Position numbers and translations under genes: made by a program. A stretch of DNA of 64,000 nt from a virus. This document shows positions 88-62,503 of this stretch, piece by piece. Numbering within the stretch: the stretch's first letter is position 1; each line of letters begins with the position of its first letter. The notes beneath the pieces were generated by a model. It was not told the origin of the DNA and did not search any database. It saw nothing but the letters and a program-made list of their open reading frames with translations. The stretch lies in the UHGV virus genome UHGV-1374697, one strand, 5' to 3'.

Positions 88-693
88 ATGGGCAAAATAA
101 GTCTCAAGAAGTATCGGGAACAGATGGCGGCCAACATGAAACACCCTTGTGGGAAGCGTCGAAGAGGAAGGTTTAAGTGCAAGAAATATGGAGATAAATT
201 TTACTGGTATCGAGATAGCCCCGCGGAGCAAAAGAAGTTCTTGAGGGAGACAAAAGCTAACAAGCTTCGGTCTCGCATCATGCCTGAACATAAGCAACTT
301 ATCCATGCCTCTCTCCGGTCGAAGAAACAACTGACCGAGGAACAACTAACCTATGGTCGCATCCTTGCATCCAATAAAATATCTACTGGTGCAGTTGGAG
401 AAACTACCCCAGATGAAATCCCTAGCTGGATTAAGGGGGACAACTCCTTTTTCTTCCAGTTTAAATTTCATGGCTATTTCATCAACAGTAAAGTTCCTGT
501 GGCTCTTGTTGGAAGTTCCTCTGCGGCTCTGGAAATATGCAGGAAGGCGTACAAGTTCGCACGGAGAATTACAAGGAAGTGGACAGTCAAAGAAGGATGT
601 TTAACTCTACCCTCTCCCCGCCTCTTCGTCATAGCTAAGATGTCTATTCGCAAATATATCAACAAACAAATTTACAAGCACCTCACCAAATAG
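88..693 (+). CDS. hypothetical basic protein with an N-terminal Cys/His cluster (CGKRRRGRFKCKKYG), possibly nucleic-acid binding
   Basis: 201-aa ORF, Lys/Arg-rich, directly abuts the next ORF (stop at 693, ATG at 695). No family recognised. Confidence 0.45.
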   Translation: MGKISLKKYREQMAANMKHPCGKRRRGRFKCKKYGDKFYWYRDSPAEQKKFLRETKANKLRSRIMPEHKQLIHASLRSKKQLTEEQLTYGRILASNKISTGAVGETTPDEIPSWIKGDNSFFFQFKFHGYFINSKVPVALVGSSSAALEICRKAYKFARRITRKWTVKEGCLTLPSPRLFVIAKMSIRKYINKQIYKHLTK

Positions 694-11300: not shown

Positions 11301-12308
11301 AAGGTTGGCGAGTTCAGCAAAAACATTCCCAGTAAATGAAGGTGCTGAATCAGAGAATTCGCCAACGCCAAGCTCCCCCACGCTCGTTTGGCTGGGGGTT
11401 TTCTTCTGCAAGCCCTCTGTCGAAGCGGCCCGGTATTTGTTGTAGAGAGACTTCGCGGCTCGGTAGTTGTCAATGTCTTCGCGCCTAATCGTATTGATGA
11501 CGCTTTCTATTTCTTCTGCGGTGTAAGCAATAGGTGCGGTCTCGATGGCTTGCGCCGTAGGTTTACCAGACACAACATCTAGATTCGAGTTGAGGTAATC
11601 CTTCCGGGCCTTTTCCATTGTGTTTGCAATGGATTTGGCCACCGCCTTTGCGTCCCGGTTTCTGTCCGCGGCAATGGCGAGGAACTTTTCCGTTACCACG
11701 GGGTTCCCATCTTCTCCACTTCCGAAGCCAGAGCGGGATAAGAAGGCGGGGTGCGTAGGCGTAAGCTCGGAAGAAGACACAACGGTAATTCCCGTATTGT
11801 TGGCAAGCTTCTTAAGGGCCTCACTATCGCCGCGGGAAGCGGCCTTCAAATCAACCAGCGCATCTTCGCCGCGGTCTACGTAATCTTTCGCGTCATCAAT
11901 CTCGACGAAGTTGAATCCACGGTTTCCACGGTTCAAGACACCGAGGGCTTTCTGCTCTTCCGCGGCTTGCCATCCGGCTTCCGTATGCGCCCTGCTCTTC
12001 TTGTCCCATTCCGCTTCATTTGCATCCTTGGCTTTCTGTGCCTGTTCCTTCTCAAAGTCATCGACAGACTTAAAGAGGAAGGTGTCATAGTCTGCGGTCG
12101 CCGTCGCTCCCTTCTCGGCACGGGTCTGTCTCTTTTCCGCTAACCTTTGCTCGCGGTCCAGTGCTTTCTGTTCTCGGTCCTGCTGTTTCTGCGCTTGCGT
12201 CTCTTGCCACGCGGCGTGCCTTTCTGCGGCACGTGATTCACGCGCGATACTACTTCCCGACGTCGGAGTGAAGTCGGACATATTGGCGGTACTAAAATCG
12301 ATGGCCAT
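2382..12308 (-). CDS. giant multidomain virion or ejection protein (3308 aa) with a zincin-like HExxH motif; candidate polyvalent or internal virion protein
   Basis: Uninterrupted 9.9-kb ORF at the distal end of the late operon, after other large structural ORFs. HEVIH (VLHEVIHLIDRHL) is encoded at 7507-7521, reading on the minus strand. The N-terminal 150 aa are highly charged and coiled-coil. I found no DxDGD (double-psi beta-barrel RNA polymerase) or T7-like RNA polymerase motif by eye. Confidence 0.85.
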   Translation of the reverse strand: MAIDFSTANMSDFTPTSGSSIARESRAAERHAAWQETQAQKQQDREQKALDREQRLAEKRQTRAEKGATATADYDTFLFKSVDDFEKEQAQKAKDANEAEWDKKSRAHTEAGWQAAEEQKALGVLNRGNRGFNFVEIDDAKDYVDRGEDALVDLKAASRGDSEALKKLANNTGITVVSSSELTPTHPAFLSRSGFGSGEDGNPVVTEKFLAIAADRNRDAKAVAKSIANTMEKARKDYLNSNLDVVSGKPTAQAIETAPIAYTAEEIESVINTIRREDIDNYRAAKSLYNKYRAASTEGLQKKTPSQTSVGELGVGEFSDSAPSFTGNVFAELANLSKSPSKMFQLVRDYGDYLSRNSGSYISGNRALTDISGMVEAGNLDLNQRPQVKNPDGSVSTVRSMSIGVDDKEYLIPTVSEDGRLLTEKEAIEQFRKTGKHLGVFDSPESATAYAKQLHTDQAKLISKKEKPVEDRIREQIETADKIVRRLEEDYTGLPYLELRDALLNPEAAASALLSLVPGADMDAIRARAKVIAEEVHRQKDRPLTVENPEQIGMSEAILEAVATRFPGVPKSALRQAGVTKLIQDYTAKATPKGTLMDAVKGALANYRSTAGQIADVLTFQPDNSVGKYADPMSLMEWRKGTKRGTWWYGMPGGPSFEVGPERLKEYMDQYHIESTRDALNSLSHAARMGDLGVGRGSLFVYNPHTKEVDTNATLELNPNALYNDKLMDQSIEALRASGADEGLINRTIEKFQNLRKKSAQELVKDNIALDETLGTLRDTWLGSGLQFNPILTESMKHLDKHLSFKNFYNEQKEAGKSDEDILSAWQEKGQDTINSVLRGLQIGTHKAIDLGTSTAYGALLFAQNAVGSRAAMEHTRTLWDQLNKKQEAEAELVRGNILADYTAEIANLGYQMVATAGAGKVGGLAGRALERTALNKFMKATANVVAKRAEALVPAARPGLAGRLSGTIQRNLDNLAALNLERAGAGAGVNLSIISQVAPNAYSDIFYTIYDREMEGKEPTAENLNRAQSIANMRALFGAALVSTGSTLINNRAGMDSYMRKIIGAKNLRGQSPFQTLERKIAGWRSKPFKEMNTKEKTFAVASYLYSTSKAVVEGATEELTDEFQEWAFTELVKNGEISESSIATTDQVISTGMKIAFLGGIGGYVGSHLAGEGNIRFQTEAVPTLDVKDATSMLPDITKDASNIIEETGKAITKNNVPESLVETGKKVIEIAGEKGDAAEVAREWVDKSIAHESLAVSDETRKAWVEGATRMGISNFTQFRNLVERASEIYTYEGSAAASSFMAEAINDLPNTLSFPNKENLDTMRTMLSEALDAMGDRVQVIEVDDDLSIITTGDEDLDAAINVINGLTEPTATTATTATAEPKESPVAIARKERDNAIAPVAAMVETGVVTPSSVETVDNMDAAIASFDSNTGAWLSYGTPLERGAKLVSLNEMTGINAPMITSNTGETIVIAPHASMYNTGEGGTPSTKWGDKVSALNLPTDGTGANAYGILSDLQVNASPAQAAAIDGVLRALHAAGLDVAIRATNAPANISSPASITYMNGTDGKLVGGVIDLYVNRDNPIESVTGTVLHEVIHLIDRHLRTTNTDYSQRMDRIRSAIAENYNNIVDSLSAMYDASVDINEMNAIAALASDLNYGLRGPDEFASVAFSNPVMNFMVAEASGDNITITDLARYAEAAGGRKPIHVRLVEWLKDLIRDVRQTADDMDGTTAAERAAEWDSYVARVADMTPGKWFDMPRTPSWKVDDTDYTMGNGVDYFNPMAYETDMTRRLSFGLGAEIIGTNAGNWVTSIKNGWLGVTKNWDKAGINVKSEEQKLIVLEQMANVNAAYERSIKRIDKIGDMLQRRADNLGWDAATRKKWSKSILDMSGNMDNDIDPETVARINAEAQAEVRQHEQTRDFRIALAKKTVTDAVNRHAEAVRLANSLALNSEGRLEINDMMRRIKDMSGKGYGAMLDKQVALPMLSQQIHKSLSDLGSRISATGNANLEATYFGLARDTQNYLADMINEVDSPFSMDELLDRWSNLRNDYLYAESTNHPAIAPMIQDIAKARAEAKQIIREAKEDFYAATKKAGVTRAGVATPAGSVWLKRDNAILNARRQKQAEYMAKRDAAEQWLLSQGVVGQLVHNVIADSRKEIAATQISIAKLIGDSRMADNAAEMNYLHRTYMAVGRHAGDFTRTMKDIIANPNGELAQKYDGLTKLLQEAAISHAEAHQRELSENVSQVLDNMQALAALHDELKLPLVSAPPRASANYKLLFEGVAKNYRNREILDFIQNNFGAVQMLADLRDGHNISAIYDKAMSMIAQADYRTKSKMTETKETLDRNARDSFLAEVFSDLPGETIADKIGSLESPASVASEVNKAIPTIPTSAIDQIWNTPDMNAAERLDKTLNLLRGQAGILMRANNMGNVISATDLKVLQYPELSRLAVNDAMKAIDEVLSKKRTNEDALAQRKRLPEWQRKAMYELSDLTIGDAIGTLQNTLSMQSKIAVNQLLADEYASVLKAQGVVVPPNSTNRTSDMVEISLKNTKNALNGMYADKDVADAIYHIYRPSDDILNSRTDDYKKVREYWQKSGKGQGWWSKAGGLANLSVLIASPNSTLRNLYGTVAQMTHAGALPFTGSKDIANLVGDWVQLRKLRRLSQGKDLASQASADRLLAAEDRYNEKIRYWQELGLLDAGQGEFLRNVWKSDEFSKMAGEFEEVNEDSFFKLAEALNEKQERTKGEVAKDAAKMAGKVVAWPIKTMSFAYGLPDAAAKIVLFTNQRAIADTQLKVQLARAMGKDNPNARDQILLDASQTTQSWDAYVDRYTAHMVKSLLPTGSRTPSWVKTLNIVAAPFFMFQYHTFQSVAYNLGHAIGEGVDGVWAINNGMKKEGAYLLGRAILRAAGSFGTISATSAVSSWVARQIIASVLGDDDDRKIIDDAEVMRKLADSGLIPDYDKFGDLIGIIDMKRHEFEYLNLEYMNPFKTIRVLAKTLPSLFMDMDVDKWGMNKVAELKNLLENTVLEESLLLNTATELFNEEDFNYKHSLSGDESVNVLPAVGNAILLAAGLNPSFGSGHTWQVLERFATVANKKIPVYGWAVKSGKQMFSDTPDMSAAAYGLQTLGAGLRRPKDLTEALAAGLKNANAAVTKSKRMSVLRPDFYKRMESGVDVESMEAAETADAVKNFTKLVNSVRFVTEITNMLDPALRKEVLASAIESSGMSAKTYGAAMKGIMPYIISPQAGREAIAKLNRELQKSNTTDEGKRLIEEQKKLIINLMRKGSIQIDGALSAEEIHNRMKQ

Positions 12309-18058: not shown

Positions 18059-18125
18059 GGCGGCAAGGAATTACCTCACCGCCATGTTAGCATTTGGGAT
18101 TTAATGGGTCAAGGAAATTCCCCGC

Positions 18126-29473: not shown

Positions 29474-31626
29474 GCCTGTTCAATGGGGATGTTAATATCT
29501 TCGAAATCCGTGGTTTCCTCGGATTCAATGGCACTGACGGCCATTGCTTCCATTGCGTAATAGGTGGGATTGGTCATTCCATTGGCATAAAGATGCCGTG
29601 TGCCCGTACCCACGTCAGCTGAAAGGGCGTATGTTTTCTCATTGCGTGCGTCAATAATCAGGGTGCTTACGCCCGTTCCTGCCTCGAAATTGATGAAGCC
29701 GCGGAGAGAAGCTATCTTGAACAGGGTATTGGTACTGCCGCCTCCCAGCTCCATATAAAGAGCCGCCTTTTCCTCTCGCTCTTCTAGGTCCGGTGGTCCG
29801 CTCTGCATGTAAATAAGCCTGTTCAACCCGGATGGCATCAGCTCATTCAACCCCAATGGAAGAAATACGGTTGTCGTCTTCACCTGCCAGTGACCTACGG
29901 ATTTTACATAAAAGATTTCTCTCACTCTGATTGCATACCCTTTGCGGTCAGTATCGTAAGGAGTATTGATGGTAACATCAATGATTTCCCCGTAGTTGAT
30001 GGCCAGATTGGCTCCCGGAATCATGGAATAAGAATCCATCGTCAACCCGGTTCTGTTGGTTTTCGAACCACGGCCTATGCCAAAAGTAAATTTAGCGAAG
30101 GTTGTCGCGTTGACCGCAAGGGAAAATCCGCACACGGAACTGTAATTAAATTGACCGTTAGGCCCTATCAGGGGGACAATCGCTGTCCCATACGCATTGG
30201 AATCGGCAGAAGCCGCGCCCACTGAAAATCTCTGCATCAACCCGGTAAGAGTACCTTTGGAAGCTTTAGAGATGGAACCCGTGACTGTGATTGAACCGGA
30301 ATTAAGGTATATAGGCTGAACCAACGCCGACATAGCACCGGCCAATCCCAACGCATAAAAGCGATTAACCGCGCCCGTATCCATCGGTGCACCTACAGTC
30401 AGAGGGATGTTAATCCCGGCGTTGGCATTGGGGGTTTTGCTGAATGTAAAAGTCCCGGTCACGTTAGTAAAGCCACCAAGATGGACATCAGCATAGAACA
30501 AAGACATTCCATAATGGTTTTCCTGTTTGTTGAACCAAAGGTTCCCAGCCCCATCAATGGCCATTGACCTATCGTTGATGTTATTGGGGTCAGTAACGGA
30601 GAGACTCCCGTTGGATTCTTCGTAGAGTATGCAACGGGTAGGACCGCTCTCCTTGCCGAAGAGGATGCACTTCATCCTCTCGCCAGAGGCGGCAATGAAG
30701 CTAATAACTTCATCAAAAGTGGTAGGGTCTTGGAACTTGACAGGAATCGCAACGTCCATGTGGGAAGCGTTCGTCCCCTCAATGACTGCGGCTCCATTAC
30801 CATCCCCGTGAAGTTTCACTGCGTCTGCCCCCTGTCCGAGAACTAGAGGAACTTCGTTACCGAGAACTACTCCTGCCGTGTTGGTGAAATTCCATGCCCC
30901 GGTGATATTCTGGTCTAGGGAGGGGTCAAACCCCGCACCCTCACCGGAGCCTAAACTAAAATTTCGGATAGAGACGAAGAAGTCCGCTTCTTCAATCGTA
31001 CTGCCGATAGAAAGAATTGCGGAAGTTTCAGTTGCCACAAAGACCAGCTGGGCAGTAGTCTTGCCGCCAGCGAGGAAGGCCTTAGGATTGTTGTCAGCTC
31101 CTACGCTAAAAAGCGCATAGCTGAATTCCGGATTAGGCTTCGTTTCCATCAAGCCGCCCAAGTCAGGATGTACATTGATGGAGTAAAGCTTACCACTTTC
31201 GAGATTGGAGATTTTGTAGAAACCCTCGGAGACAGGGCCATCACCGTCCAGCGGGAGGGCCTGATACTCTTGGTCGTAGTTGAAGCCCAACGGGTGAAGA
31301 GCAATCGTTGCGTGTGCGCTCTCAACCGAAGCATTCTTATCCTGTGCGTTAGTGGGGACGACGAAGTACTTACCGTTGGGAGATGCAATCTCAATCACCT
31401 GTCCCGCGACCGAACCATTGATGACGAACTGTTCCGGCGTAATGTTGGACCACAGTTCGTCAGTAGGAGCGGTAGCGGAAAGCTTGAAGAGACAGGGAGA
31501 ACTGGAAGCAAGAAGCCACGCGGTGTGCGTGTCGGCATCGCCCAGCTTATAGGTTACGCCCGGCGTAATAGGAGAGCCGTTGACGTAATTTTCAATTTGG
31601 ATTTCAGAAGAACGTTTACGTGCCAT
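29470..31626 (-). CDS. large structural protein (718 aa), tail fiber or receptor-binding candidate
   Basis: A long Gly/Ser/Thr/Asn-rich ORF. It is the first gene after an intrinsic terminator in the structural block. The function is inferred from position and composition only. Confidence 0.55.
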   Translation of the reverse strand: MARKRSSEIQIENYVNGSPITPGVTYKLGDADTHTAWLLASSSPCLFKLSATAPTDELWSNITPEQFVINGSVAGQVIEIASPNGKYFVVPTNAQDKNASVESAHATIALHPLGFNYDQEYQALPLDGDGPVSEGFYKISNLESGKLYSINVHPDLGGLMETKPNPEFSYALFSVGADNNPKAFLAGGKTTAQLVFVATETSAILSIGSTIEEADFFVSIRNFSLGSGEGAGFDPSLDQNITGAWNFTNTAGVVLGNEVPLVLGQGADAVKLHGDGNGAAVIEGTNASHMDVAIPVKFQDPTTFDEVISFIAASGERMKCILFGKESGPTRCILYEESNGSLSVTDPNNINDRSMAIDGAGNLWFNKQENHYGMSLFYADVHLGGFTNVTGTFTFSKTPNANAGINIPLTVGAPMDTGAVNRFYALGLAGAMSALVQPIYLNSGSITVTGSISKASKGTLTGLMQRFSVGAASADSNAYGTAIVPLIGPNGQFNYSSVCGFSLAVNATTFAKFTFGIGRGSKTNRTGLTMDSYSMIPGANLAINYGEIIDVTINTPYDTDRKGYAIRVREIFYVKSVGHWQVKTTTVFLPLGLNELMPSGLNRLIYMQSGPPDLEEREEKAALYMELGGGSTNTLFKIASLRGFINFEAGTGVSTLIIDARNEKTYALSADVGTGTRHLYANGMTNPTYYAMEAMAVSAIESEETTDFEDINIPIEQA

Positions 31627-31632
31627 GATAGT

Positions 31633-31681
31633 AAAAATTTGGGGCTGAACCCATAGAAGTTTAGCTCATGAGTTCAGCCCC
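31633..31681 (-). terminator. rho-independent terminator immediately upstream of the 718-aa gene
   Basis: On the minus strand: GGGGCTGAAC-N21-GTTCAGCCCC-aaatttttactatcATG. A 10-bp perfect stem followed by a T-run. Confidence 0.6.
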
Positions 31682-31700
31682 GTCAAGGTTTAATTGTTGG

Positions 31701-53927: not shown

Positions 53928-54090
53928 ACTTTTATGAATGAGGCCGGTGGAGCGTGGACGGCGTAGTCCGCACCCTCGTGGCCTATGGTTTGAATTGCCG
54001 TCCGGAGGTCGAACGGTGTCCGAGGCTACCACGGGTTCCGGGGGTTGTCAAGTAGAATCTACGACCCTTAACAAGCATGTAACAAGCAAG

Positions 54091-54562
54091 ATTTAGAGTA
54101 GTTGTTACGGTAAGTTATTGAGTATATACGACTTAACAACTATAACAAGCATAACAAGCAAAAACCGTAGTTAAACGTGTACGCACTCGTCCTCGTGCCG
54201 TATGGCGGTCGCGCTACGCGCTCCGCGAACCATGTTTTTATGATAGGGAAAGGGCTAACTCGGAAAGCGATTAAAACTGAATGAGTTAGCGTAACAACCT
54301 ATCAAAATCTCGATGTAAGATGTTAAGAGCCAAGTACTTAACAGCTGAAGCTCGAAAGAAGTTGTTACGCTGGGTCATTGATAATAAACGACTTAACAAC
54401 TATAACAAGCAAACAAGCAAATTCTACAGACTCTATATATGTGTATATAAGGCCTCCCCTATACCCCTCTTTTCTTATATAACTACTATTTTTGCTTGTT
54501 TTGGTTGTTATAGTTGTTAAACTATTAAAAAAGAAGGGGTTAGCGTAACAACTACTCTAAAT
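54091..54562. repeat. AT-rich iteron block bracketed by 19-bp inverted repeats; origin-of-replication candidate
   Basis: ATTTAGAGTAGTTGTTACG (54091-54109) and its reverse complement (54544-54562) flank several copies of AACAACTATAACAAGCA-type units. A 22-bp perfect direct repeat CGACTTAACAACTATAACAAGC sits at 54129 and 54389, with inverted copies near 54497 and 54585. The block is adjacent to the primase-helicase gene. Confidence 0.5.
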
Positions 54563-54937
54563 CATGCTTGTTATAGGTTGTTAGTAGATGTTACAAGATT
54601 GAGAATGAACGGATTAAGAGAACAGCATTGGGCGTCAGCCACTTATGAGTATGGGGTTCTCCGGCTAAAGAAAAACCCTTCGGAAGCAGGACATGCCTAC
54701 CTCCGAAGGGCTACGCCTTGGGAACATCAACCTAGGAGATGGGTGACAGGAGGGCGTTGCTTCGAGTAGGACTTACCTACTACCTTACTGCCTACCCTCC
54801 ACGCGTTGCCCTCCTGTCTGGCCGTATAATACCAGCCCCATCGAAAAAGTCAAGACAATCCTCTGCCAATATGTTATTTTGTTATGCACGCGTATATACG
54901 CGCCCACATGTGTGTACGCCCCCTTTCCAAATCTCCT

Positions 54938-55060
54938 GAATTTAATCGAGCGTCCTACCCTAGAACGCGCCGCAACCCTCCCTCCGCTACAACTATCCAC
55001 CCGGACCCCGTCCCCTCCTTCTACCCCGCCACACTGGATTAAATTCGTAAACGCGCCATC
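54938..55060. repeat. copy 1 of a roughly 70-90-bp direct repeat family in the control region
   Basis: GAATTTAATCGAG(C/G)GTCCTACCCTAGAACGCGCC(G/A)CAACC...CCGCTA(C/T)AACTA. A second copy lies at 55417-55481 with the adjacent A-segment permuted. Confidence 0.5.
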
Positions 55061-55231
55061 ACACCAATTTCCTCTTGACTTTCTCCCCTGATGTGATATG
55101 TTGCACCTGTTCGCTCCGAACGGCAACCGAACCAGCTAAGCCCAATGCTTCTGGCTATCCCAAGCGGGGAATCCGCATGCCACAGGAGCGGACTAAACAC
55201 TCTCCTTTCTACAGGCATTTTCCATAGTTAC

Positions 55232-55276
55232 GCCCGTGGGTAGTCTCGTCAAGCTACCTGCGGGCTTTTTCTTTGC
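55232..55276 (+). terminator. plus-strand rho-independent terminator inside the non-coding region, marking the possible 3' end of an ncRNA
   Basis: GCCCGTGGGTAG-tctcgtcaag-CTACCTGCGGGC-tttttctttg. No protein-coding gene lies upstream on the plus strand. Confidence 0.4.
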
Positions 55277-55389
55277 CGCCAAATCCGCGAGAGCCGCTCC
55301 GTCGCATTATGCCCGCCGTGCGCAAATTTGGTCGATGGTAGTGCCCTATCTCCTGTTTCATGACTAATGTACCCACTCGCTACCTATAC

Positions 55390-55481
55390 CCCGTCACACT
55401 CTTGTAAATTTGCCCGAATTTAATCGAGGGTCCTACCCTAGAACGCGCCACAACCGCTGGTCCGCTATAACTACCCGCCCG
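55390..55481. repeat. copy 2 of the roughly 70-90-bp direct repeat family
   Basis: See copy 1. The two copies are more than 85% identical over about 65 bp. Confidence 0.5.
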
Positions 55482-55859
55482 AAGAGTATGCCCGCCTTCT
55501 AGGTTGATACGTCCCCCCGTGGACTAGCCGCGTGTCGATTTTTCTTGACTAGGCGGGGATGGGGTGCAGACCAGATGAGGCTGAAACAGACCAGAGGTCA
55601 TGACCATCATGTTGAACCCACGGAACCCACGCACCCCGCGAAGCGGCCATGACCATGTACCCACCCATGTACCCGCCGCATGTCGATTTTGCTTGACAAC
55701 CGACAACCGACATGCCCAGAAGGGTACTCCCTCCCCCGTACCCCACGGAAAAAATTTGACCCAACTATTTACTATGGGCCGCGTGCAACCCCGGAGCCTG
55801 GGAAACCGTGGTGGTGTTTGGATTTTCTTGGTATCCAATTTCCCCCTATACCTACGGAA

Positions 55860-56070
55860 TCGGTGCATCACGGAACCTTTTTGCCTCTGATTGCACCGGG
55901 AACGGTATATCCCGGGGGGGCCTGCCTATCCCCCACATGCACCGGAATCGGTAAGATAGGCCACCGTGTTGCAACGGGAACGGTATACCACCTGCCCTGA
56001 ACTGCCACCGCCCCTGTCATGGGAACGGTACGCCATGCAACCCATTGAATCCTCGGAATCTGTTGCAACC
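55860..56070. repeat. cluster of degenerate GGGAACGGTA / CGGAATCGGT direct repeats
   Basis: ccGGGAACGGTAtatcc, caacGGGAACGGTAtacc, catGGGAACGGTAcgcc, plus cCGGAATCGGTgcatc, caCCGGAATCGGTaagat and cctCGGAATCtgttg, spaced 30-40 bp apart. Confidence 0.45.
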
Positions 56071-56394
56071 GTCTGATGATAAGGAACTTATGGTATAAAG
56101 AGGTCTGTAGGTCTCCGGGGGAACCGAGGGTGCAATACCTGTTTCCCACTGACACCCTGATATGCGTAACTCGTTGATACTCTAGGCAATCCGCTTCCAT
56201 ACTTCGCATAATACATATAATGCAAAATCGCATTCCGGTTTTCCTACTAATCCGATAGGAATTGAAATTGAAGGTGCTGGAGAAGGCAGGAAAGGGGCAG
56301 GGTCTTGCCCTCAAATTGTTCAACTCTGGACGGGTTAAGTATCAACAACATATGAAGCATACCCTAGGGGGTATAGGTATCCTTCCCTCATTAA

Positions 56395-56552
56395 TAGTCA
56401 AATATTGGACTAATGGCTTTTACATTTTTGTAAAAGCCCTATATCTTGTATGTCAAATTGTCACACCCCTATATCTTGCGTACCTGTAGCGGTGCAATCG
56501 GCAGGCGGCCAGTCCTTGCGGTTTTGCCGTCAGATAGTCAAATATCGGACTA
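56395..56552. promoter_or_regulatory. two near-palindromic 18-bp operator-like sites TAGTCAAATAT(T/C)GGACTA
   Basis: Sites at 56395-56412 and 56533-56552 with GACTA/TAGTC half-sites. The direct repeat CCCTATATCTTG x2 (56443-56490) lies between them. Confidence 0.45.
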
Positions 56553-56577
56553 TCTATCTTCAAAGATTGTTAGACCG

Positions 56578-56783
56578 GACTTATAAAGTTAGGCTGGACT
56601 TAAAAGTTAGGCTGGACTTATAAAGTTAGACCGGACTTAATAAGTTAGGCTGGACTTATAAAGTTAGGCTGGACTTAAAAGTTAGGCTGGACTTATAAAG
56701 TTAGGCTGGACTTAAAAGTTAGTCCAAACTTAAAATGTTAGGCCGGACTTAATAAGTTAGACGGCACTTACAAGGGAGGAATG
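56578..56783. repeat. tandem array of about 11 units of 18-19 bp, GTTAGGCTGGACTTA(T)AAA
   Basis: Alternating 19-bp and 18-bp units, with degenerate units at the 3' end. They share the GGACT half-site with the upstream palindromes. There are no unique spacers. Confidence 0.8.
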
Positions 56784-56819
56784 TTTAAGAATCCTTAATA
56801 GTTATGAATCCTTAACTAT

Positions 56820-56882
56820 CTTGAAGCCCTTGAAGCCCTTGAAGCCCTTGAAGCCCTTGAAGCCCTTGAAGCCGTTGAAGCC
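56820..56882. repeat. tandem repeat of 9 bp x7 (CTTGAAGCC)
   Basis: Six perfect copies plus GTTGAAGCC. Confidence 0.85.
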
Positions 56883-56986
56883 GCTATCCCACCACAACCG
56901 ATTGCCCGAAATTGTTCCATGTGGAACATTTTAAGGCCAAAAGATACCAAAAGAATACAAAAGAATCCCCTACACTATATATATAA

Positions 56987-57047
56987 AAGGGGAACCGGGG
57001 GAACCGGATACCGGGGGAACCGGGGGAACCGGGAATCATGGATACCG
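56987..57047. repeat. GGGGGAACCG x4 direct repeats (the GGAACC motif family) just upstream of the first early promoter
   Basis: aaaGGGGAACCGGGGGAACCGGataCCGGGGGAACCGGGGGAACCGGgaatcatggataccg. Confidence 0.7.
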
Positions 57048-57116
57048 AAGGGTTGTATGACACAATTATAACACGCAGATAGTCAGCAGGTTACAACGCG
57101 CCGGAAAGAAAACCGC

Positions 57117-57171
57117 TTGACGCACCCGGCAATCATGTTAAATTGCAATCATCCAACGGGGAACAACCCCC
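57117..57171 (+). promoter_or_regulatory. early promoter and leader-hairpin cassette, copy a (degenerate)
   Basis: TTGACG-N15-TTAAAT, then tgcaatcatcc and the hairpin CGGGG-aacaa-CCCCG, upstream of the ATG at 57215. Confidence 0.4.
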
Positions 57172-57214
57172 GGACAATGAGAACACTAATTAAATAGATA
57201 GGAGACCACTAATC

Positions 57215-57499
57215 ATGATTATCAACATCATCATCAATCGCAGGTGCGGCCTCATTAACTATGACGCCGCTACACATCTTAAAGCTATCTATGACTACGC
57301 AACCGCCGCCGGACTGTCAGACCTAGCCCGTGCGTTGGATAGCGGAAAAGAAGCTGATGTTAAGGCCGCTCTCATGCACTATGTCATCAATGGGGGTTGC
57401 AACCCGGACATCCACCACTACAACATGTTTGACTTGTGCTTATTTATCAACCGGGTGCGGTGGACGGATGAAGAAGAAGAATCTGCTGATACTGAATGA
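57215..57499 (+). CDS. early hypothetical protein (94 aa)
   Basis: First plus-strand ORF after the control region, with an A-rich leader. Confidence 0.5.
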   Translation: MIINIIINRRCGLINYDAATHLKAIYDYATAAGLSDLARALDSGKEADVKAALMHYVINGGCNPDIHHYNMFDLCLFINRVRWTDEEEESADTE

Positions 57500-57532
57500 T
57501 TTATGATTGTGTCATACAACTCAAAAAACTAT

Positions 57533-57585
57533 TTGACAACACTCTAAAATCTGATAAATTGCAATCATCCACCGGGGCAACCCGG
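57533..57585 (+). promoter_or_regulatory. early promoter and leader-hairpin cassette, copy b
   Basis: TTGACA-N16-TAAATT, then gcaatcatcc and the hairpin CCGGG-gcaa-CCCGG. It is preceded by GTCATACAACTCAAAAAACT, and AACAATAGAAAGAAATAA lies 8 nt before the ATG at 57628. Confidence 0.55.
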
Positions 57586-57627
57586 ACAACGAAAAGAAAC
57601 ACTAAAACAATAGAAAGAAATAATACA

Positions 57628-58056
57628 ATGAGCACATATACAGATCACGCAAAGAGATTCCTTGAAAATTGCGGAATCAGAATTACCGGAAAGTATAAGG
57701 GAAGATATGTTCCCTTGTGGGATAAAGAGCCGCATAGCACATGGGAAATTGTCCTGCGGCGTGAAGACCGCCGGAAGGGAGAAAAAGACGCAATCTTCAT
57801 CACGTTTTATCAGTCACACGCAGATAAGTACAAGACGCCCACCGCTTATGCCGTACTGGCTTGCCTGTGTAAGTCAGATTGTGGCTCCTATCAGGACTTT
57901 TGTGAAGATATGGGATTGCCCCTATATGACGAGGATACGGGGGAACGCAATATGGATTCCTATTGCCAGTACACAGCGGCGTGCCATGAGTACGCAGATC
58001 TTAAAACCTTCTTCACCCGCCCGGGTGAATGGGAAGAGCTGGAAGAGATTTATTGA
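57628..58056 (+). CDS. early hypothetical Cys-rich protein (142 aa)
   Basis: The start at 57628 (MSTYTDHAKRF) is supported by the conserved leader. The ATG at 57496 lies inside the promoter cassette. Confidence 0.55.
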   Translation: MSTYTDHAKRFLENCGIRITGKYKGRYVPLWDKEPHSTWEIVLRREDRRKGEKDAIFITFYQSHADKYKTPTAYAVLACLCKSDCGSYQDFCEDMGLPLYDEDTGERNMDSYCQYTAACHEYADLKTFFTRPGEWEELEEIY

Positions 58057-58122
58057 ACCTTGAAAAGATACGCCACTCTACGAAACATTTAACCACAAAC
58101 CAACAACAGAAAGAATAATACT

Positions 58123-58512
58123 ATGAAAGACATATCAGAATTACACATCAGAAAGGAAATAAAAGTAGAAGGAAACGGAAAAGTTCACCTCGCCATTGAA
58201 AGCTTTAATTCCTTGCACCGAAAAGAGTATACTCTTTCCCCCGCCATGTGGGCGGCTTCGGAAGTACTACAGGACAAGGTTTCCCGGCCGGGAAGTATGT
58301 ACCTGAAAGATACGTTTTCTATCTATCGCGTAGGTGCTTATGACGTTATGATAATTTCATCCGTGGATGAATCCCCATATTCAACCCTTGAAAGATTATC
58401 GCTAGCGGAAAAGATAGCATGGTTCCCTTTCGGCATTGAAAACGTCCAACAGGTAGAAGATACCCGGCATTCTAATTCACAACATGTATCTTATCTGCGT
58501 ATCATTCAATGA
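58123..58512 (+). CDS. early hypothetical protein (129 aa)
   Basis: ORF with the leader AGAAAGAATAATACT-ATG. Confidence 0.5.
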   Translation: MKDISELHIRKEIKVEGNGKVHLAIESFNSLHRKEYTLSPAMWAASEVLQDKVSRPGSMYLKDTFSIYRVGAYDVMIISSVDESPYSTLERLSLAEKIAWFPFGIENVQQVEDTRHSNSQHVSYLRIIQ

Positions 58513-58588
58513 ATATGAAACCCGTTAAAGCTGAATAATTACACCGCCCTAACATATTAACAATAAAACAATAGAAAGAAATAAAATC

Positions 58589-59116
58589 ATGAATACATTT
58601 CCTAAAATGCTCAATGTTACTGAATACGCCCTGATTCATGACATTCCAGAATGGGCAATCTACTCCCTTGAATACGGAGAAGGTGAAGAAGATATGGCAG
58701 ATGAAGACCTTAAAATCCTTGAAGAGTGGGAAAAAGACTACTACCCTGTTTCCTCGGTGGAAGACCAGCCGGAAGCACATTTCACCAGCACGCCCGCCTT
58801 TGGCTTGCCCTGTGACTGTGTAAAATATTATGTTCTCCCTTGGTATATAGATGCCGTCTATATGTGGGCAAAACCCGGATGCCGCATGACAAATTGTTAC
58901 CTTAAGTTCACGCTAGTTTCAGGCTCGCAGGTAAAGGTGTATCTGAACGGGCATCAAACCCTGCGGAGTGCTATCCGCAACCTGATAGGGCAGGTAGAAA
59001 TGGGGCATACTTTCACAGACGTGAACGGGCATGAAGTTACTCCAAAAGCCCGCGATATCATTAACTTCTGGATTTGTACAATGCAAGGGCAAACCCTAGC
59101 TACAGGGCGCATTTAA
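58589..59116 (+). CDS. early protein, paralog A of a duplicated pair (175 aa)
   Basis: About 60% identical to 60324..60854 (shared ...YALIHDIPEWA...TPAFGLPCDCVKYYVLP...PGCRMTNCYL...GHQTLRSAIRNLIG...GHTFTD...QTLATGRI). Has the conserved AACAATAGAAAGAAATAAAATC leader. Confidence 0.6.
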   Translation: MNTFPKMLNVTEYALIHDIPEWAIYSLEYGEGEEDMADEDLKILEEWEKDYYPVSSVEDQPEAHFTSTPAFGLPCDCVKYYVLPWYIDAVYMWAKPGCRMTNCYLKFTLVSGSQVKVYLNGHQTLRSAIRNLIGQVEMGHTFTDVNGHEVTPKARDIINFWICTMQGQTLATGRI

Positions 59117-59152
59117 CATATTAACAATAAAACAATAGAAAGAAATAAAATC

Positions 59153-59455
59153 ATGAATGAAGACGAAAAGAAAACGGCAATAGATATTTTAGCCGCTCAT
59201 ATCCGGGAAACGCGCCCCTACCTTTTCCAGTTGTCCGCACGCCATGATGAAGAGCTGGAACTAATCGCCGCACTAGCGGAAGCAACCGGAAGCAAGCTTA
59301 CCTTGCTTGTCAGGAACCGGGAATCCCGGGAAATGCGGGCAATCAGCATTGCGGACTATCGCCCTCATGAAATGGTAGTCAGCCGTGCCTTTATTTCAGA
59401 CCCACTATGCCTTGCCCTTGAGGAAGCGGGCGCAAGGATTGTGTATAACCGTTAA
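59153..59455 (+). CDS. early hypothetical protein (100 aa)
   Basis: ORF with the conserved leader. Confidence 0.5.
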   Translation: MNEDEKKTAIDILAAHIRETRPYLFQLSARHDEELELIAALAEATGSKLTLLVRNRESREMRAISIADYRPHEMVVSRAFISDPLCLALEEAGARIVYNR

Positions 59456-59492
59456 GTCCCCCCTGAAAAGTTACACCACCCTAAAAAAGTAT

Positions 59493-59550
59493 TTGACAAG
59501 ATAATAAAATCCGATAAACTAAAATCAGCAAGCGGGAGACAAGCTCCCGC
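59493..59550 (+). promoter_or_regulatory. early promoter and leader-hairpin cassette, copy c
   Basis: TTGACA-N16-TAAACT, then aaaatcagcaa and the hairpin GCGGGAG-acaag-CTCCCGC. It is preceded by TTACACCACCCTAAAAAAGTA, and the leader ATTAGAAAGAAATAACTT-ATG follows. Confidence 0.6.
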
Positions 59551-59581
59551 ATAACCTCAAACCATTAGAAAGAAATAACTT

Positions 59582-59908
59582 ATGAAAGAAATACTAAAAT
59601 TAGACTATGACGAAATGACTGTATCAGACCCTGACAAGATGACAATCTTGCCCCATAACTGGAAGGAAGATACTGCTCTCATGCTTACCGTTACGGATAG
59701 GGTATGCAAGGGAATCGAAAAAGCAAGGAAGCTACTTCCCACCCTACCCCGGGGAAGTGAGATTAAAATCAGGCTGGATTCTTGGTACATTCTGGGAGAA
59801 CTTAAAGGATATACGCCGGACTTCGGATATATTGTGATAAGACCGTTCGAAACTGCTTTTGTACTAGCCCTTTCTGATTCCCCGGAAACTATTTCTTGGT
59901 CGCTCTAA
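59582..59908 (+). CDS. early hypothetical protein (108 aa)
   Basis: ORF downstream of cassette c. Confidence 0.5.
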   Translation: MKEILKLDYDEMTVSDPDKMTILPHNWKEDTALMLTVTDRVCKGIEKARKLLPTLPRGSEIKIRLDSWYILGELKGYTPDFGYIVIRPFETAFVLALSDSPETISWSL

Positions 59909-59945
59909 TTTATCATACAACTGAAAACCTAAACAACACTATATC

Positions 59946-60269
59946 ATGAACACTCAAATTGAATTGAAAGACAACGAAATCCCGGCATGGGCATTCTACG
60001 AAAACGGCGAGGGCCTTCTGTCCCTTATCTTTTTCGCCGCATCACCTTCACATGCACGCCCCATTGCCGCCCTGCTTAACATATACCCGTGGGATGCCCT
60101 GCCAGAATTAGATGATTCTGACATTGTGCGCTTGTGGCAGGCGGTGAAAGAGAATGAGTTAGGGGACTGGTGTACCTATGACGCAAAGGAAATTAACCGG
60201 TATCTGGAACAACGGTTCTGCCAGTCAGTAGCTACAGCTTCTATAATTACGCCGCTCCCCATTGAATAA
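59946..60269 (+). CDS. early hypothetical protein (107 aa)
   Basis: An ORF. Confidence 0.5.
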   Translation: MNTQIELKDNEIPAWAFYENGEGLLSLIFFAASPSHARPIAALLNIYPWDALPELDDSDIVRLWQAVKENELGDWCTYDAKEINRYLEQRFCQSVATASIITPLPIE

Positions 60270-60323
60270 CTACGCCGCCCTATAAAATCAAACTAATAAT
60301 AAACAATAGAAAGCAACCATATT

Positions 60324-60854
60324 ATGAAGACTACAACTAAACCGGAAATACTTAAAGTATCAGACTATGCCCTTATCCATGACATTCCCACCTATGCCCT
60401 CAATTACTTGGTGTGCGGGGAAGATGAAAGCCTCGCCCCTGATGACATTGAAAACATTGAAGAGTGGAAAAAAGACTACTATCTTGCCCCCCTAGTTGAA
60501 GGCCAGCTGGTTGCTCTTCATTCTGCCACTCCGGCTTTCGGTTCACCCTGCCCTTGTGTAAAATACTATGTCCTGCCTCGCTTTATGGGGGCAGTCCTGA
60601 CATGGATAAATCCGGGTTGCCGGATGACTAACTGCTACCTTGAACTTAAGCTTACAGACGGTGGCCGGGTAAAGGTGTATCTGAAAGGGCATCAAACCCT
60701 GCGCAGTACTATCCGCAACCTGATTGGCTTGGTAGAAACGGGACATACTTTCACCGATATGAACGGCCACAATGTATCCCCCCGTCCCCGTGATATCGTT
60801 AATTTCTGGATTCGTACAATGCACGGGCAAACGCTGGCAACCGGAAGAATATAA
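60324..60854 (+). CDS. early protein, paralog B of the duplicated pair (176 aa)
   Basis: See 58589..59116. Has the leader AACAATAGAAAGCAACCATATT-ATG. Confidence 0.6.
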   Translation: MKTTTKPEILKVSDYALIHDIPTYALNYLVCGEDESLAPDDIENIEEWKKDYYLAPLVEGQLVALHSATPAFGSPCPCVKYYVLPRFMGAVLTWINPGCRMTNCYLELKLTDGGRVKVYLKGHQTLRSTIRNLIGLVETGHTFTDMNGHNVSPRPRDIVNFWIRTMHGQTLATGRI

Positions 60855-60905
60855 ACCACTTGCGGCTTGTTCCGGGGAATCAAAATTGTTCCACGTGGAA
60901 CATTT

Positions 60906-61034
60906 AAACCCCGGAACCCCCGGAACCCGTCAAATAACTCTAACCAAATAACAACGTAGAAAGACAAAGGAATAATTCCCGCCCCCGGAATGCGGGGGAT
61001 ATCGGGTGCAACGGGTTCCGGGGGTTCCGGGGTT
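60906..61034. repeat. 21-bp perfect inverted repeat pair (CCCCGGAACCCCCGGAACCCG ... CGGGTTCCGGGGGTTCCGGGG) enclosing a leader-like segment and a GC hairpin, with no ORF
   Basis: The arms lie at 60906-60930 and 61010-61034. Between them sits AACTCTAACCAAATAACAACGTAGAAAGACAAAGG (leader-like) and the hairpin CCCGCCCCCGG-aat-GCGGGGGATATCGGG. Confidence 0.6.
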
Positions 61035-61095
61035 TAACAATAAACCAATCATAAATTACAGACCGTGAATAACTACGCCGCTCTATAAAAAGTAT

Positions 61096-61149
61096 TTGAC
61101 AAGATAAGAAAATCTGCTAAACTGAAATCATCAGCCACCGGAAGGGTGG
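61096..61149 (+). promoter_or_regulatory. early promoter and leader-hairpin cassette, copy d
   Basis: TTGACA-N16-TAAACT, then gaaatcatcag and the hairpin CCACC-ggaag-GGTGG. It is preceded by CTACGCCGCTCTATAAAAAGTA, and the leader AACAATAGAAAGAATAATACT-ATG (61186) follows. Confidence 0.6.
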
Positions 61150-61185
61150 CAACTATATCAACAAAACAATAGAAAGAATAATACT

Positions 61186-61614
61186 ATGAAAGAAAATGAG
61201 ATTGAAGTATGGGGAACTACGGAAGCGCAAGACGTTTCATCAAACGCCGTTAATAGCCGAGGTGAAAAGTGCCGCATTGTGCGCACCTATGACTACTACC
61301 CGGACGAGCATGAGATACATGAACACGTCAGTATTCAGAATGCCGTTAGTATTAAACTGGTAGAGTTTAACGCTTACAAGGTGCGGGACTTGATTGAAAA
61401 TACAGAAAGGTTCCGTGCTCGTCTTTCCGATTGCACAACCACCGTTCCTACGTGCGAACCGAAAGCCGAACCGTATGCGAGAAGCAACTCTATTAGAGTA
61501 TTCCGGGAAAGAGCCGTGCAATATTATGGCACAAACTCTGATTCTTTTACTCTCTACACGGATAGAAACTTTTTGGACATTCCTATACCCCTCGTTGTTC
61601 TCTTCTCAAAATAA
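61186..61614 (+). CDS. early hypothetical protein (142 aa)
   Basis: ORF downstream of cassette d. Confidence 0.5.
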   Translation: MKENEIEVWGTTEAQDVSSNAVNSRGEKCRIVRTYDYYPDEHEIHEHVSIQNAVSIKLVEFNAYKVRDLIENTERFRARLSDCTTTVPTCEPKAEPYARSNSIRVFRERAVQYYGTNSDSFTLYTDRNFLDIPIPLVVLFSK

Positions 61615-61652
61615 ATAGGATACGCCTTTTGTCATACAAAACAAAAAACTAG

Positions 61653-61709
61653 TTGACAAGATAAGAAAATCTGCTAAACTGAAATCATCCAGCGGGGGAC
61701 AAGCCCCGC
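61653..61709 (+). promoter_or_regulatory. early promoter and leader-hairpin cassette, copy e
   Basis: TTGACA-N16-TAAACT, then gaaatcatcca and the hairpin GCGGGG-gacaa-GCCCCGC. It is preceded by GTCATACAAAACAAAAAACTAG, and the leader CCGATAGAAAGAATAAAACA-ATG (61754) follows. Confidence 0.6.
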
Positions 61710-61753
61710 AACAATAAACCAAACAACAATAAACCGATAGAAAGAATAAAACA

Positions 61754-62503
61754 ATGAATACTACATCCGCAAACCTCACCAGTGCCGCCGCCATTAATGC
61801 CCTTACTGAACGGGCAAATGCCGCTATCGATGCCGCCGTAGACAAGGTGCGTGACGACCTCATGAAGAATAATCAGAATGACTATGTCATCCCGGTGAAA
61901 AATATGGGGCATAACCTGAAACAGGTTGTCCGAGATAATGCCGCCTATGGTCTGGCCGCCTTTATTACTCACCGCATGCTGATACTAGTGGCCGAACGCC
62001 TTCGCCAGTTTGAAGGCAAGGTCTATAACGTCCGAGTAGAACGGATGATGGATGACTGTCTGGCCGCCGCAATCGTGCAAAGCGTTGATGCGGACATTAA
62101 AATCCGAGCCTATATAGATAGAAGTCACTACGCATGGCCGAAAGTGGTGTTTCATCATATCCTCCCCGGCATGTATGATAACATAAATATTTCCTTTAAC
62201 TTTGACGTCAACGAATTGACGCAGAAGCAGAAGCGGATTGTCACCGGGAGGGACATGGAGAAATTCATTGAAGGAATCTTCAATGATATGGTTCGCCTTG
62301 ATACCAAGCTTCAAGAAATTGAGGATTCAAACTACCGCCTTTGCAATTCCGACTACATGTGCGCCTATTTTACACAAGCCGTTAAAGTGGAAGAGCAAGT
62401 GGAGAGCTTGAAGCAAGGCCTTAAAAACCTGACTGGTGCACAATACTATCGCTTCGACTATAACCACACAACCGTTTCCACCCTTCCCTCCTACAGGGCA
62501 TGA
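61754..62503 (+). CDS. early hypothetical protein (249 aa)
   Basis: The largest early ORF. No motif recognised. Confidence 0.55.
   Translation: MNTTSANLTSAAAINALTERANAAIDAAVDKVRDDLMKNNQNDYVIPVKNMGHNLKQVVRDNAAYGLAAFITHRMLILVAERLRQFEGKVYNVRVERMMDDCLAAAIVQSVDADIKIRAYIDRSHYAWPKVVFHHILPGMYDNINISFNFDVNELTQKQKRIVTGRDMEKFIEGIFNDMVRLDTKLQEIEDSNYRLCNSDYMCAYFTQAVKVEEQVESLKQGLKNLTGAQYYRFDYNHTTVSTLPSYRA

Follow-up and report, generated by a model that had tools for sequence, protein, structure and literature searches.

The 64,000-nt window analyzed here (the whole stretch of DNA under study) belongs to the virus genome UHGV-1374697, which comes from a ∼70-kb uncultured human-gut phage. A 52-kb minus-strand block encodes a VapE-like primase-helicase, DNA polymerase I, a helicase, an exonuclease, the terminase, structural genes and a 3308-residue open reading frame (ORF), and a plus-strand arm of small genes begins at 57.2 kb; in relatives, this arm goes on with an NAD-dependent ligase, ThyX and a DUF3310 protein. 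The plus-strand arm harbors an array of 11 small, mostly acidic ORFs (57215..62503, +), almost all of them ORFans and presumed to be expressed early. The array is served by five copies of a module (∼110 bp each, plus strand) in which a predicted sigma70-like promoter is followed by a GC-rich stem-loop and a long leader. These promoter–hairpin modules, identified by reading the region 56,800-62,200 and aligning the five copies, are the subject of the present analysis.

Anatomy of five promoter–hairpin cassettes

The cassettes were designated c1–c5, with −35 boxes starting at 57117, 57533, 59493, 61096 and 61653, respectively. Their features are listed below, with stems in capitals and loops in lower case.

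c1, 57095..57217, plus strand: A-rich tract; TTGACG at 57117-57122; N16 spacer with TG; TAAATT at 57139-57144; hairpin CGGGG-aacaac-CCCCG at 57157-57172; 42-nt leader with GGAG; ATG at 57215; fold z-score −1.45
c2, 57511..57630, plus strand: GTCATACAA box at 57511; A-tract; TTGACA at 57533-57538; TG and TAAATT at 57555-57560; hairpin CCGGG-gcaa-CCCGG at 57572-57585; 42-nt A-rich leader with ATAGAAAGAA; ATG at 57628; fold z-score −3.96
c3, 59472..59584, plus strand: TACACCACCCTA box at 59472; A-tract; TTGACA at 59493-59498; TAAACT at 59515-59520; hairpin GCGGGAG-acaag-CTCCCGC at 59532-59550; 31-nt leader; ATG at 59582; fold z-score −3.93
c4, 61074..61188, plus strand: TACGCCGCTCTA box at 61074; A-tract; TTGACA at 61096-61101; TG and TAAACT at 61118-61123; hairpin GCCACC-ggaag-GGTGGC at 61134-61150; 35-nt leader; ATG at 61186; fold z-score −3.80
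c5, 61631..61756, plus strand: GTCATACAA box at 61631; A-tract; TTGACA at 61653-61658; TG and TAAACT at 61675-61680; hairpin GCGGGG-gacaag-CCCCGC at 61692-61709; 44-nt (AAN)n-rich leader; ATG at 61754; fold z-score −3.95

The original prediction, made from the window alone, had placed five plus-strand cassettes at these sites, and all five were found there. The order of parts within the cassettes is an intergenic box, an A-tract, TTGAC(A/G), a 16-nt spacer, TAAAYT, the conserved stretch (g/a)(a/c)AATCA(t/g)C, the GC stem-loop, the leader and the ATG. The promoter common to c1–c5 is TTGAC(A/G)-N16-TAAAYT, so that the predicted N16 spacing and promoter type held, but the predicted TTGACA-N16-TAAACT was too narrow, as c1 has TTGACG and both c1 and c2 have TAAATT. 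An extended −10 TG (at −15/−14) is present in four of the five promoters. Mean column identity across the five aligned copies was 69% over ∼140 nt, conservation being highest in the two promoter boxes (−35 and −10) and in the 16-nt spacing between them.

The stem-loop, with a stem of 5–7 bp, begins 10–12 nt after the −10 box and has a stability of −10 to −14 kcal/mol. The c5 loop, previously given as gacaa, proved to be the 6-nt gacaag on a 6-bp stem. Between the hairpin and the ATG lies an A/C-rich, unstructured leader of 31–44 nt with only 2–7 G, in which the purine-rich ATAGAAAGAA, 8–10 nt before the ATG, takes the place of a canonical Shine-Dalgarno sequence; GGAG was found in c1 only. With its TTGACG box, GGAG-type ribosome-binding site, absence of the ATAGAAAGAA leader and weak fold statistic, c1 is the divergent and weakest member of the set.

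The modules are in clear excess over chance. Allowing at most one mismatch, TTGACA-N16-TAAAYT gave 7 matches in the window against 0.53 expected, and the plus-strand matches were all accounted for by the five cassettes. The predicted 5′ untranslated regions, taken from the probable start of transcription up to the ATG, each folded as a single hairpin with an unpaired tail, with z-scores against shuffled sequences of −3.8 to −4.0 for c2–c5 and only −1.45 for c1. The hairpin was present at all five early promoters and at none of the five promoter-less early intergenic regions. An Rfam E-value scan of 54-64 kb returned two sub-threshold chance matches only, none of them at a cassette.

Conserved hairpin position and changing stems among relatives

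Near-identical contigs of ∼68–71 kb were common in the human-gut assemblies of IMG/VR, ENA and Logan. Comparison of the early region with 50,697 GenBank phages by megablast and blastn gave no match, 185,579 species genomes searched for the terminase yielded no relative, and protein similarity to cultured phages was remote. A promoter-anchored scan identified 27 IMG/VR loci carrying the cassette and at least ∼9 relevant metagenome loci among the matches listed, most other matches being due to chance. In total, 47 distinct versions of the sequence 3′ of the −10 box, many of them kin by descent or recombination, were compared. Stems were tabulated directly since a MAFFT alignment of the hairpin variants put the two arms out of register.

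A GC stem of at least 4 bp was kept in 42 of the 47 variants, starting 11–12 nt after the −10 box in most and 7–10 nt after it in a few. Among the remaining variants, 2/47 had a decayed stem and 3/47 had a short leader without a hairpin (L015, L027, L160, L191). About 11 different stems were observed. The proposal that the stems change by compensatory substitution had a modest basis within the window alone and became convincing once the relatives were added. At the base of the stem, a C-G pair is exchanged for G-C (CCGGG/CCCGG vs GCGGGG/CCCCGC), and at position 6 a G-C pair is exchanged for A-T (GCGGGGG/CCCCCGC vs GCGGGAG/CTCCCGC). Whole hairpins are also exchanged in place, for GCCACC/GGTGGC and, in L025 and L094, for CCCCGCCC/GGGCGGGG. 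The GCCACC/GGTGGC hairpin of c4 is unique to the window, the orthologous cassette of the relatives bearing a c5-type hairpin.

Intermediates with a G·U pair were found in three variants (CCGGG/TCCGG, CCGGG/CTCGG and CGGGGG/CCCCTG) vs A·C in one. Pairs of the G·U type also occur in the promoter-proximal hairpins 18112(−) and 51043(−), with changes from U·G to U-A between relatives. As a sense-strand G·U corresponds to a C·A mismatch in the template, this wobble favors a structure at the RNA level, the numbers being small. In a separate observation, the hairpin at 18112(−), a 10-bp stem with two G·U pairs, fills the whole space from the −10 box to the ATG and ends exactly at the ATG.

The diversity of the stems bears on the possibility of an operator, according to which a dimeric DNA-binding repressor would occupy the inverted repeat (+5 to +25) and turn the early promoters off. 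The position just 3′ of the start site is a classic location of an operator; however, half-sites that differ wholly between cassettes while the pairing is kept are the opposite of what a sequence-specific operator predicts. This candidate was rejected on account of its differing half-sites and retains next to no probability.

In distant relatives, whose terminase is 57% identical, the cassette sequences are unrelated but the layout is the same. It consists of an A-tract, TTGACA-N16-TATTAT or TTGCGT-N16-TAAATT, a hairpin ∼5–6 nt after the −10 box (at ∼+1) and an A/C-rich leader. The position of the hairpin near the start site is thus conserved more deeply than its sequence, which supports selection on the structure. 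An explanation at the DNA level would dispense with any selected RNA function and regard the polyG/polyC repeat as a by-product or recombination hotspot (slippage, cruciform exchange) hitch-hiking in a duplicating cassette. It draws on the polymorphic G-run (5–9 G among relatives), on loop inversions of the kind typical of template switching at quasi-palindromes, and on the loss or degradation of the hairpin in some cassettes. A comparable event is known from phage RB49, in which one recombination crossover was mapped within the loop of a promoter-early stem-loop (PeSL) cassette (PMC2839356). Such an origin is nevertheless unlikely to account for the hairpin: unrelated hairpins (GCCACC/GGTGGC, CCCCGCCC/GGGCGGGG) take the place of the common one without a shift in position, a hairpin directly follows the −10 box even in distant relatives whose cassette sequences are unrelated, and pairing is preserved by compensatory and G·U changes.

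The loops behave differently from the stems. They had been expected to stay purine-rich, which did not hold among the relatives: most loops read (G)ACAA(G), GCAA or AACAA, but others are inverted (acaag vs cttgt) or read ttg, ccttat or actat, and their length varies from 3 to 9 nt as against 4–6 nt in the window. This variation is relevant to a protein-binding RNA hairpin, which would either load an antiterminator in the manner of boxB/nut or be recognized by a phage factor responsible for switching off or degrading early mRNAs. As in the nut sites of lambda and P22, the element is a small, promoter-proximal RNA hairpin of early transcripts with a 5–7-bp stem and an often purine- or A-rich loop of 4–6 nt. 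The boxB of P22 has a GACAA loop and that of lambda has GNRA-like pentaloops, and the loops GACAAG, ACAAG, GCAA and GGAAG recall both. The C-rich, G-poor leaders, moreover, resemble rut (Rho-loading) sites. A candidate partner could be the 201-residue, very basic protein (46 K+R) encoded at 88-693 (+), which has an N-terminal GKRRRGRFKCKK motif and no family match and may bind nucleic acid.

In contrast to the nut sites, the element occurs at every early promoter and not once per operon. The loops are not conserved in relatives, which also have loops of 7–9 nt, no boxA-like element was found beyond the conserved start region, and cassette promoters without a hairpin exist. On the plus strand of 57-64 kb, no intrinsic terminator was detected except weak matches in coding regions, Rho-dependent sites being outside the scan, no early protein had an N-terminal arginine-rich motif, and no N-like protein was found. 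The absence of plus-strand early intrinsic terminators, the unconserved and inverted loops and the lack of a detectable N-like protein also speak against the antitermination or timing switch that had been proposed earlier. Altogether, a protein-binding role is decidedly unlikely.

Likeness to PeSL cassettes and early-gene shuffling

The PeSLs are ∼100-bp mobile regulatory cassettes of the T4-like phages RB49/phi1, T4/PST and KVP40/nt-1 (Arbiol et al. 2010, PMC2839356; Comeau et al. 2014, PMC4122927). Each combines a strong sigma70-like promoter, preceded by an AT-rich tract, with a stem-loop (“frequently polyG followed by polyC”) and ends in a ribosome-binding site and an ATG (PMC2839356). They sit 5′ of ORFans in hyperplastic regions, where homologous recombination between copies inserts, deletes and swaps genes (PMC2839356), and excised mini-circles of a cassette with its ORF count among their features. 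The modules of the gut phage share an AT-rich tract 5′ of the −35 box, sigma70-like −35 and −10 boxes, here predicted as TTGAC(A/G)-N16-TAAAYT, and a polyG-then-polyC stem in the form of CGGGG/CCCCG, CCGGG/CCCGG, GCGGGAG/CTCCCGC and GCGGGG/CCCCGC. They likewise precede small ORFan early genes whose order and content differ among near-identical relatives, and indels and rearrangements between close relatives break at the cassettes. Judged by their sequence, the five modules can hence be grouped with the PeSL-like early cassettes, an already known kind that is found here in a new phage lineage. The combination of a hairpin with canonical −35/−10 boxes had been considered unprecedented, but PeSLs are exactly that combination (PMC2839356), and the finding opens no new class of transcription mechanism.

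The likeness is not complete. The lineage is unrelated to that of the T4-like phages, being an uncultured gut phage of ∼70 kb with a podovirus-like ejection protein. The leader here is long, A/C-rich and without a Shine-Dalgarno sequence, and extra conserved intergenic boxes (TACRCCRCYCTA, GTCATACAA) are present. Five positions of the stem-loop have been published for PeSLs, one of them “downstream of the -10” (PMC2839356), whereas all five stem-loops of the present phage occupy a single position, 3′ of the putative start site, and none has a U-tract. Owing to this uniform position and the lack of a U-tract, the published terminator role of PeSLs fits poorly here.

That role deserves attention since the stem-loop of the RB49/phi1 PeSL lowered lacZ expression to an extent similar to that of the rrnB T1 terminator (PMC2839356). 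By analogy, the stem-loop would pause or terminate RNA polymerase and damp read-through from upstream tandem promoters, each cassette resetting transcription. Five strong predicted promoters in tandem without intervening intrinsic terminators would otherwise pile up transcription, and units of promoter, hairpin and T-run exist in relatives. The window itself has one classic promoter-in-terminator with a T-run after it, 31686(−). This element (31626-31700, −) lies 5′ of a gene for a 718-residue protein and consists of TTGACG-N17-TAAACT within the loop of a 10-bp hairpin, GGGGCTGAAC/GTTCAGCCCC, followed by the T-run AAATTTTT. Its composite promoter/terminator arrangement is the classic PeSL layout and is conserved in L031, L033, L038 and L057.

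None of the five cassette hairpins, however, has a U-tract (0–3 T in the 8 nt after the stem) and none passed the terminator scan. An attenuator 3′ of the putative start site would also halt the cassette's own transcript, and the lack of a hairpin in the promoter-less intergenic regions is odd for an element stopping upstream transcription. Attenuation is accordingly a doubtful explanation, although one that keeps some weight. A reading of the hairpins as terminators of the minus strand was rejected as no T-run is adjacent. Separately, distant relatives carry units (L077 10619, L079 11436 and L080 19330, +) in which several main-strand promoters are followed at once by a strong hairpin with a T-run and then by the ATG. 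As predicted from their sequence, the start site of these units lies inside the 5′ arm, so that upstream transcripts would terminate and the units' own transcripts would escape.

The evidence for shuffling comes from the comparison with relatives. In BLAST alignments with 17 relatives, entire genes had changed place, disappeared or given way to others. Of 134 segment ends, 91 fell in intervals of cassette or intergenic DNA, together 23% of the region, the endpoints not being phylogenetically independent; most other ends lay within 10 nt of a gene boundary. The gene 58123-58512 is found after the 60324-60854 paralogue in L178. The gene 59582-59908 is precisely absent in L005, L011 and L027, with the junction in the c3 leader. 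L011 also has a chimeric cassette in which the c1 promoter is joined to the hairpin and leader of c5. The early genes 58589-59116 and 60324-60854 (+) are paralogues with 63% identity, and relatives hold them in differing orders and contexts. In Pfam and PHROG scans, only three early proteins had any match (DUF6926 and PHROGs of unknown function); the Pfam family DUF6926 was detected in 58589-59116, the scan having covered the first paralogue only.

As the cassettes are repeated, they would also serve as homologous joints. Repeated units of ∼100 bp could allow recombination to insert, delete and reshuffle ORFan early genes among related phages. PeSL-type cassettes, so far found mainly in T4-like myoviruses, thus appear to organize and shuffle the early ORFans of an abundant gut phage lineage without a relative among GenBank phages. 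This lends support to the idea that cassettes of this kind provide virulent phages with a general means of early-gene plasticity.

Parts of the cassette also occur outside it, at joints without a promoter:

58057..58122, plus strand: promoter-less intergenic joint with TACGCCACTCTA box at 58069 and ACAGAAAGAA leader
58513..58588, plus strand: promoter-less intergenic joint with TACACCGCCCTA box at 58540 and ATAGAAAGAA leader; recurrent rearrangement breakpoint in relatives
60270..60323, plus strand: promoter-less intergenic joint with TACGCCGCCCTA box at 60271, A-tract and ATAGAAAGCA leader; resembles a cassette minus the promoter–hairpin core

The leader ATAGAAAGAA, said earlier to end each module, is present in the cassettes other than c1, but it also precedes the promoter-less early genes at 58106, 58571, 59135 and 60306. 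Similarly, the A/C-rich upstream elements described as opening the modules were observed in c2–c5, but the same boxes also occur without a promoter. The 12-nt box TACRCCRCYCTA follows the stop codon at 58069, 58540, 59472, 60271 and 61074 (+), with ∼0.06 occurrences expected by chance per strand. It accompanies a promoter in c3 and c4 and stands without one at 58069, 58540 and 60271, while GTCATACAA is found at 57511 (c2) and 61631 (c5). The TACRCCRCYCTA box is a recurrent rearrangement breakpoint and could be a recombination joint or the site of a regulator. In addition, the palindrome TGTTCCAYGTGGAACA occurs twice (56914-56930 and 60888-60904), each copy flanked by GGAACC/CCGGAAC 9-mer repeats (60909-60928; inverted at 61013-61032). 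The second copy lies in a 330-bp gap just 5′ of c4 and may be a binding site for a regulator.

Putative role of the stem-loop, polymerase and host

The lack of a U-tract together with a position 3′ of the putative start site favors a 5′-proximal stabilizer or insulator. In such a scheme, the A-tract would be UP-element-like (an upstream A/T-rich promoter enhancer), and the host holoenzyme would presumably read the TTGACA-N16-[TG]n-TAAAYT promoter right after DNA entry. The most likely start site of transcription would be the A that lies 7 nt beyond the −10 box, within the conserved gAAATCA. Each early mRNA would then carry 4–6 free nt, the GC stem-loop, a G-poor, structure-free A/C-rich leader and the purine-rich non-Shine-Dalgarno site ATAGAAAGAA. 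The static RNA stem-loop could hinder 5′-end-dependent decay, whether through RppH and RNase E or through RNase J, and leave the leader accessible to ribosomes, as do the 5′ stem-loops of ompA, papA and the T7 gene-10 leader. If so, the cassette would be a compact, portable expression unit that combines an extended −10 promoter and its UP-like tract with a 5′ hairpin and an unstructured leader.

Known stabilizers of this type include the 5′ stem-loops of E. coli ompA and papA and of Bacillus subtilis aprE, and a hairpin located at the 5′ end or close to it stabilizes the mRNA downstream and impedes RppH (reviewed in PMC3997798). In the leader of T7 gene 10 (phi10), a stem-loop with the loop ACAAC comes first and an A/U-rich enhancer second. 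The cassettes resemble these stabilizers (ompA, papA, aprE and T7 gene 10) in having a single static GC hairpin near the 5′ end and, after it, an unstructured leader favoring translation. The earlier suggestion of a 5′-terminal mRNA element is retained in its stability version, which fits a static hairpin 4–6 nt after the likely start, an unstructured leader and wobble of the G·U and not the A·C type; its antitermination and timing versions are not.

Several points weigh against this role. Protection by a 5′ hairpin in E. coli needs roughly 2–4 unpaired nt or fewer, and the overhang of the cassettes, 4–6 nt for a start at the A 7 nt after the −10 box as compared with ∼0 in distant relatives (L080/L082), would be geometrically borderline for the E. 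coli rule. The putative start site was itself deduced from the −10 position alone. A hairpin-less cassette promoter in at least four related contigs and the two decayed stems indicate that the hairpin is dispensable in some contexts. Part of the hairpin variation, given the length polymorphism of the G-run, looks like slippage and not selection, and the variants are related by descent or recombination, so that their counts overstate independence. The PeSL authors, for their part, demonstrated a terminator/attenuator role for one of their stem-loops and not that of a stabilizer (PMC2839356). Finally, the assignment of the promoters to a host sigma70 would be wrong if the host belonged to Bacteroidota. 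The specific role of a 5′-proximal RNA stabilizer or insulator is therefore put forward tentatively, at rather less than an even chance. The full explanation, in which a PeSL-like cassette, a stabilizing role and shuffling apply jointly, is considered evenly balanced.

A hairpin before early genes near a probable genome end also recalls phage N4, whose virion RNA polymerase (vRNAP) recognizes a template-strand DNA hairpin with a 3-nt loop. Contacts are made with the −11 purine, −10 G, −8 G and +1 C, and transcription by the gp50-type polymerase starts 8 nt downstream (PMC4496689). Under this alternative, a virion-delivered RNA polymerase, possibly within the 3308-residue protein, would read a DNA hairpin promoter superimposed on the sigma70 promoter. 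The stems, at 5–7 bp of GC-rich sequence, are in line with it, and the 3308-residue protein is a giant virion/ejection-type protein (>3000 residues) similar in size to N4 gp50. N4 promoters, however, are devoid of −35/−10 boxes; here the boxes are present and, with the extended TG and the A-tract, are more tightly conserved than the hairpin. The loops (4–9 nt, variable and sometimes inverted) differ from the 3-nt N4 loop with its fixed bases, variants with G·U (template C·A) are tolerated, and hairpin-less promoters exist.

The 3308-residue ORF (2382-12308, −) had more than 500 homologues in public assemblies, the best 120 being all at least 92% identical. Its product gave no PDB match at E ≤ 1, N4 vRNAP included, no Pfam or PHROG match and no DxDGD motif, remote homology below sequence detection being possible. 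The sole similarity, found by tblastn, was that of a ∼100-residue domain (residues ∼370–487) to podovirus ejection (“DNA transfer”) proteins. A zinc-protease-like HExxH motif (HEVIH) was present near residue 1597. No RNA polymerase or sigma factor gene was detected in this protein, in the other large ORFs or elsewhere in the sequence examined.

The promoter grammar of the genome points in the same direction. The pattern TTGAC-N17-19-TANNNT had 27 matches genome-wide against 5.2 expected, a five-fold excess, and 25 of the 27 were on the coding strand. Minus-strand promoters of the form TTGAC-N16/17-TAnnnT (44042, 40998, 28976, 23229 and 2365) end 5–7 nt before the ATG, so that the corresponding mRNAs look leaderless. 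From its sequence, the phage thus appears to use a sigma70-type holoenzyme throughout, and the five cassettes stand apart as a promoter subclass in which a −10 box of the TAAAYT type is combined with an A-tract, a hairpin and a long leader. With sigma70-like promoters throughout and no detectable RNA polymerase gene, the N4-type promoter, which had been the second of the two original proposals, is unsupported; its loops also depart from the definition, and it is scarcely probable.

Which holoenzyme this might be depends on the host. Shine-Dalgarno sequences were almost wholly absent at 57 gene starts, the upstream regions being A/C-rich and G-poor, often with A at −3. Such near-total absence is a pattern typical of Bacteroidota. 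The housekeeping sigma factor of Bacteroidota is reported not to use TTGACA/TATAAT promoters. The Bacteroides-type promoter (TTTG...TAnnTTTG) was not enriched (0 and 28 matches vs 0.2 and 30.9 expected). With a Bacteroidota-type host, as the absence of Shine-Dalgarno sequences hints, and a host sigma factor unable to read TTGACA/TAAACT promoters, the cassettes would have to be read by a virion-delivered sigma-like factor or by a polymerase activity hidden in the 3308-residue protein. The hairpin could then be part of the recognition, which would amount to an undescribed dual or hybrid type of promoter; this is very improbable. The sigma70-like promoters themselves would become an interesting finding if the host were a member of Bacteroidota.

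Between the two divergent gene arms lie ∼3 kb of non-coding, repeat-dense DNA (54050-57100). The repeats include a 19-nt unit, GTTAGGCTGGACTTATAAA, in 10 copies (56569-56760), CTTGAAGCC in seven copies (56820-56882), GGGGAACCG in five copies (56989-57033) and TAACAAGCA (from 54134). Five IMG/VR contigs of ∼68 kb start at about window position 55,0xx. The region is probably an origin and/or a genome end. It also contains two divergent mini-units, 54674-54853 (−) and 55075-55265 (+), in which a sigma70-like promoter is followed ∼110–160 nt later by a strong intrinsic terminator (stems of 17 bp and 13 bp with a T-run) without an ORF in between. These mini-units next to the putative genome end may encode small RNAs.

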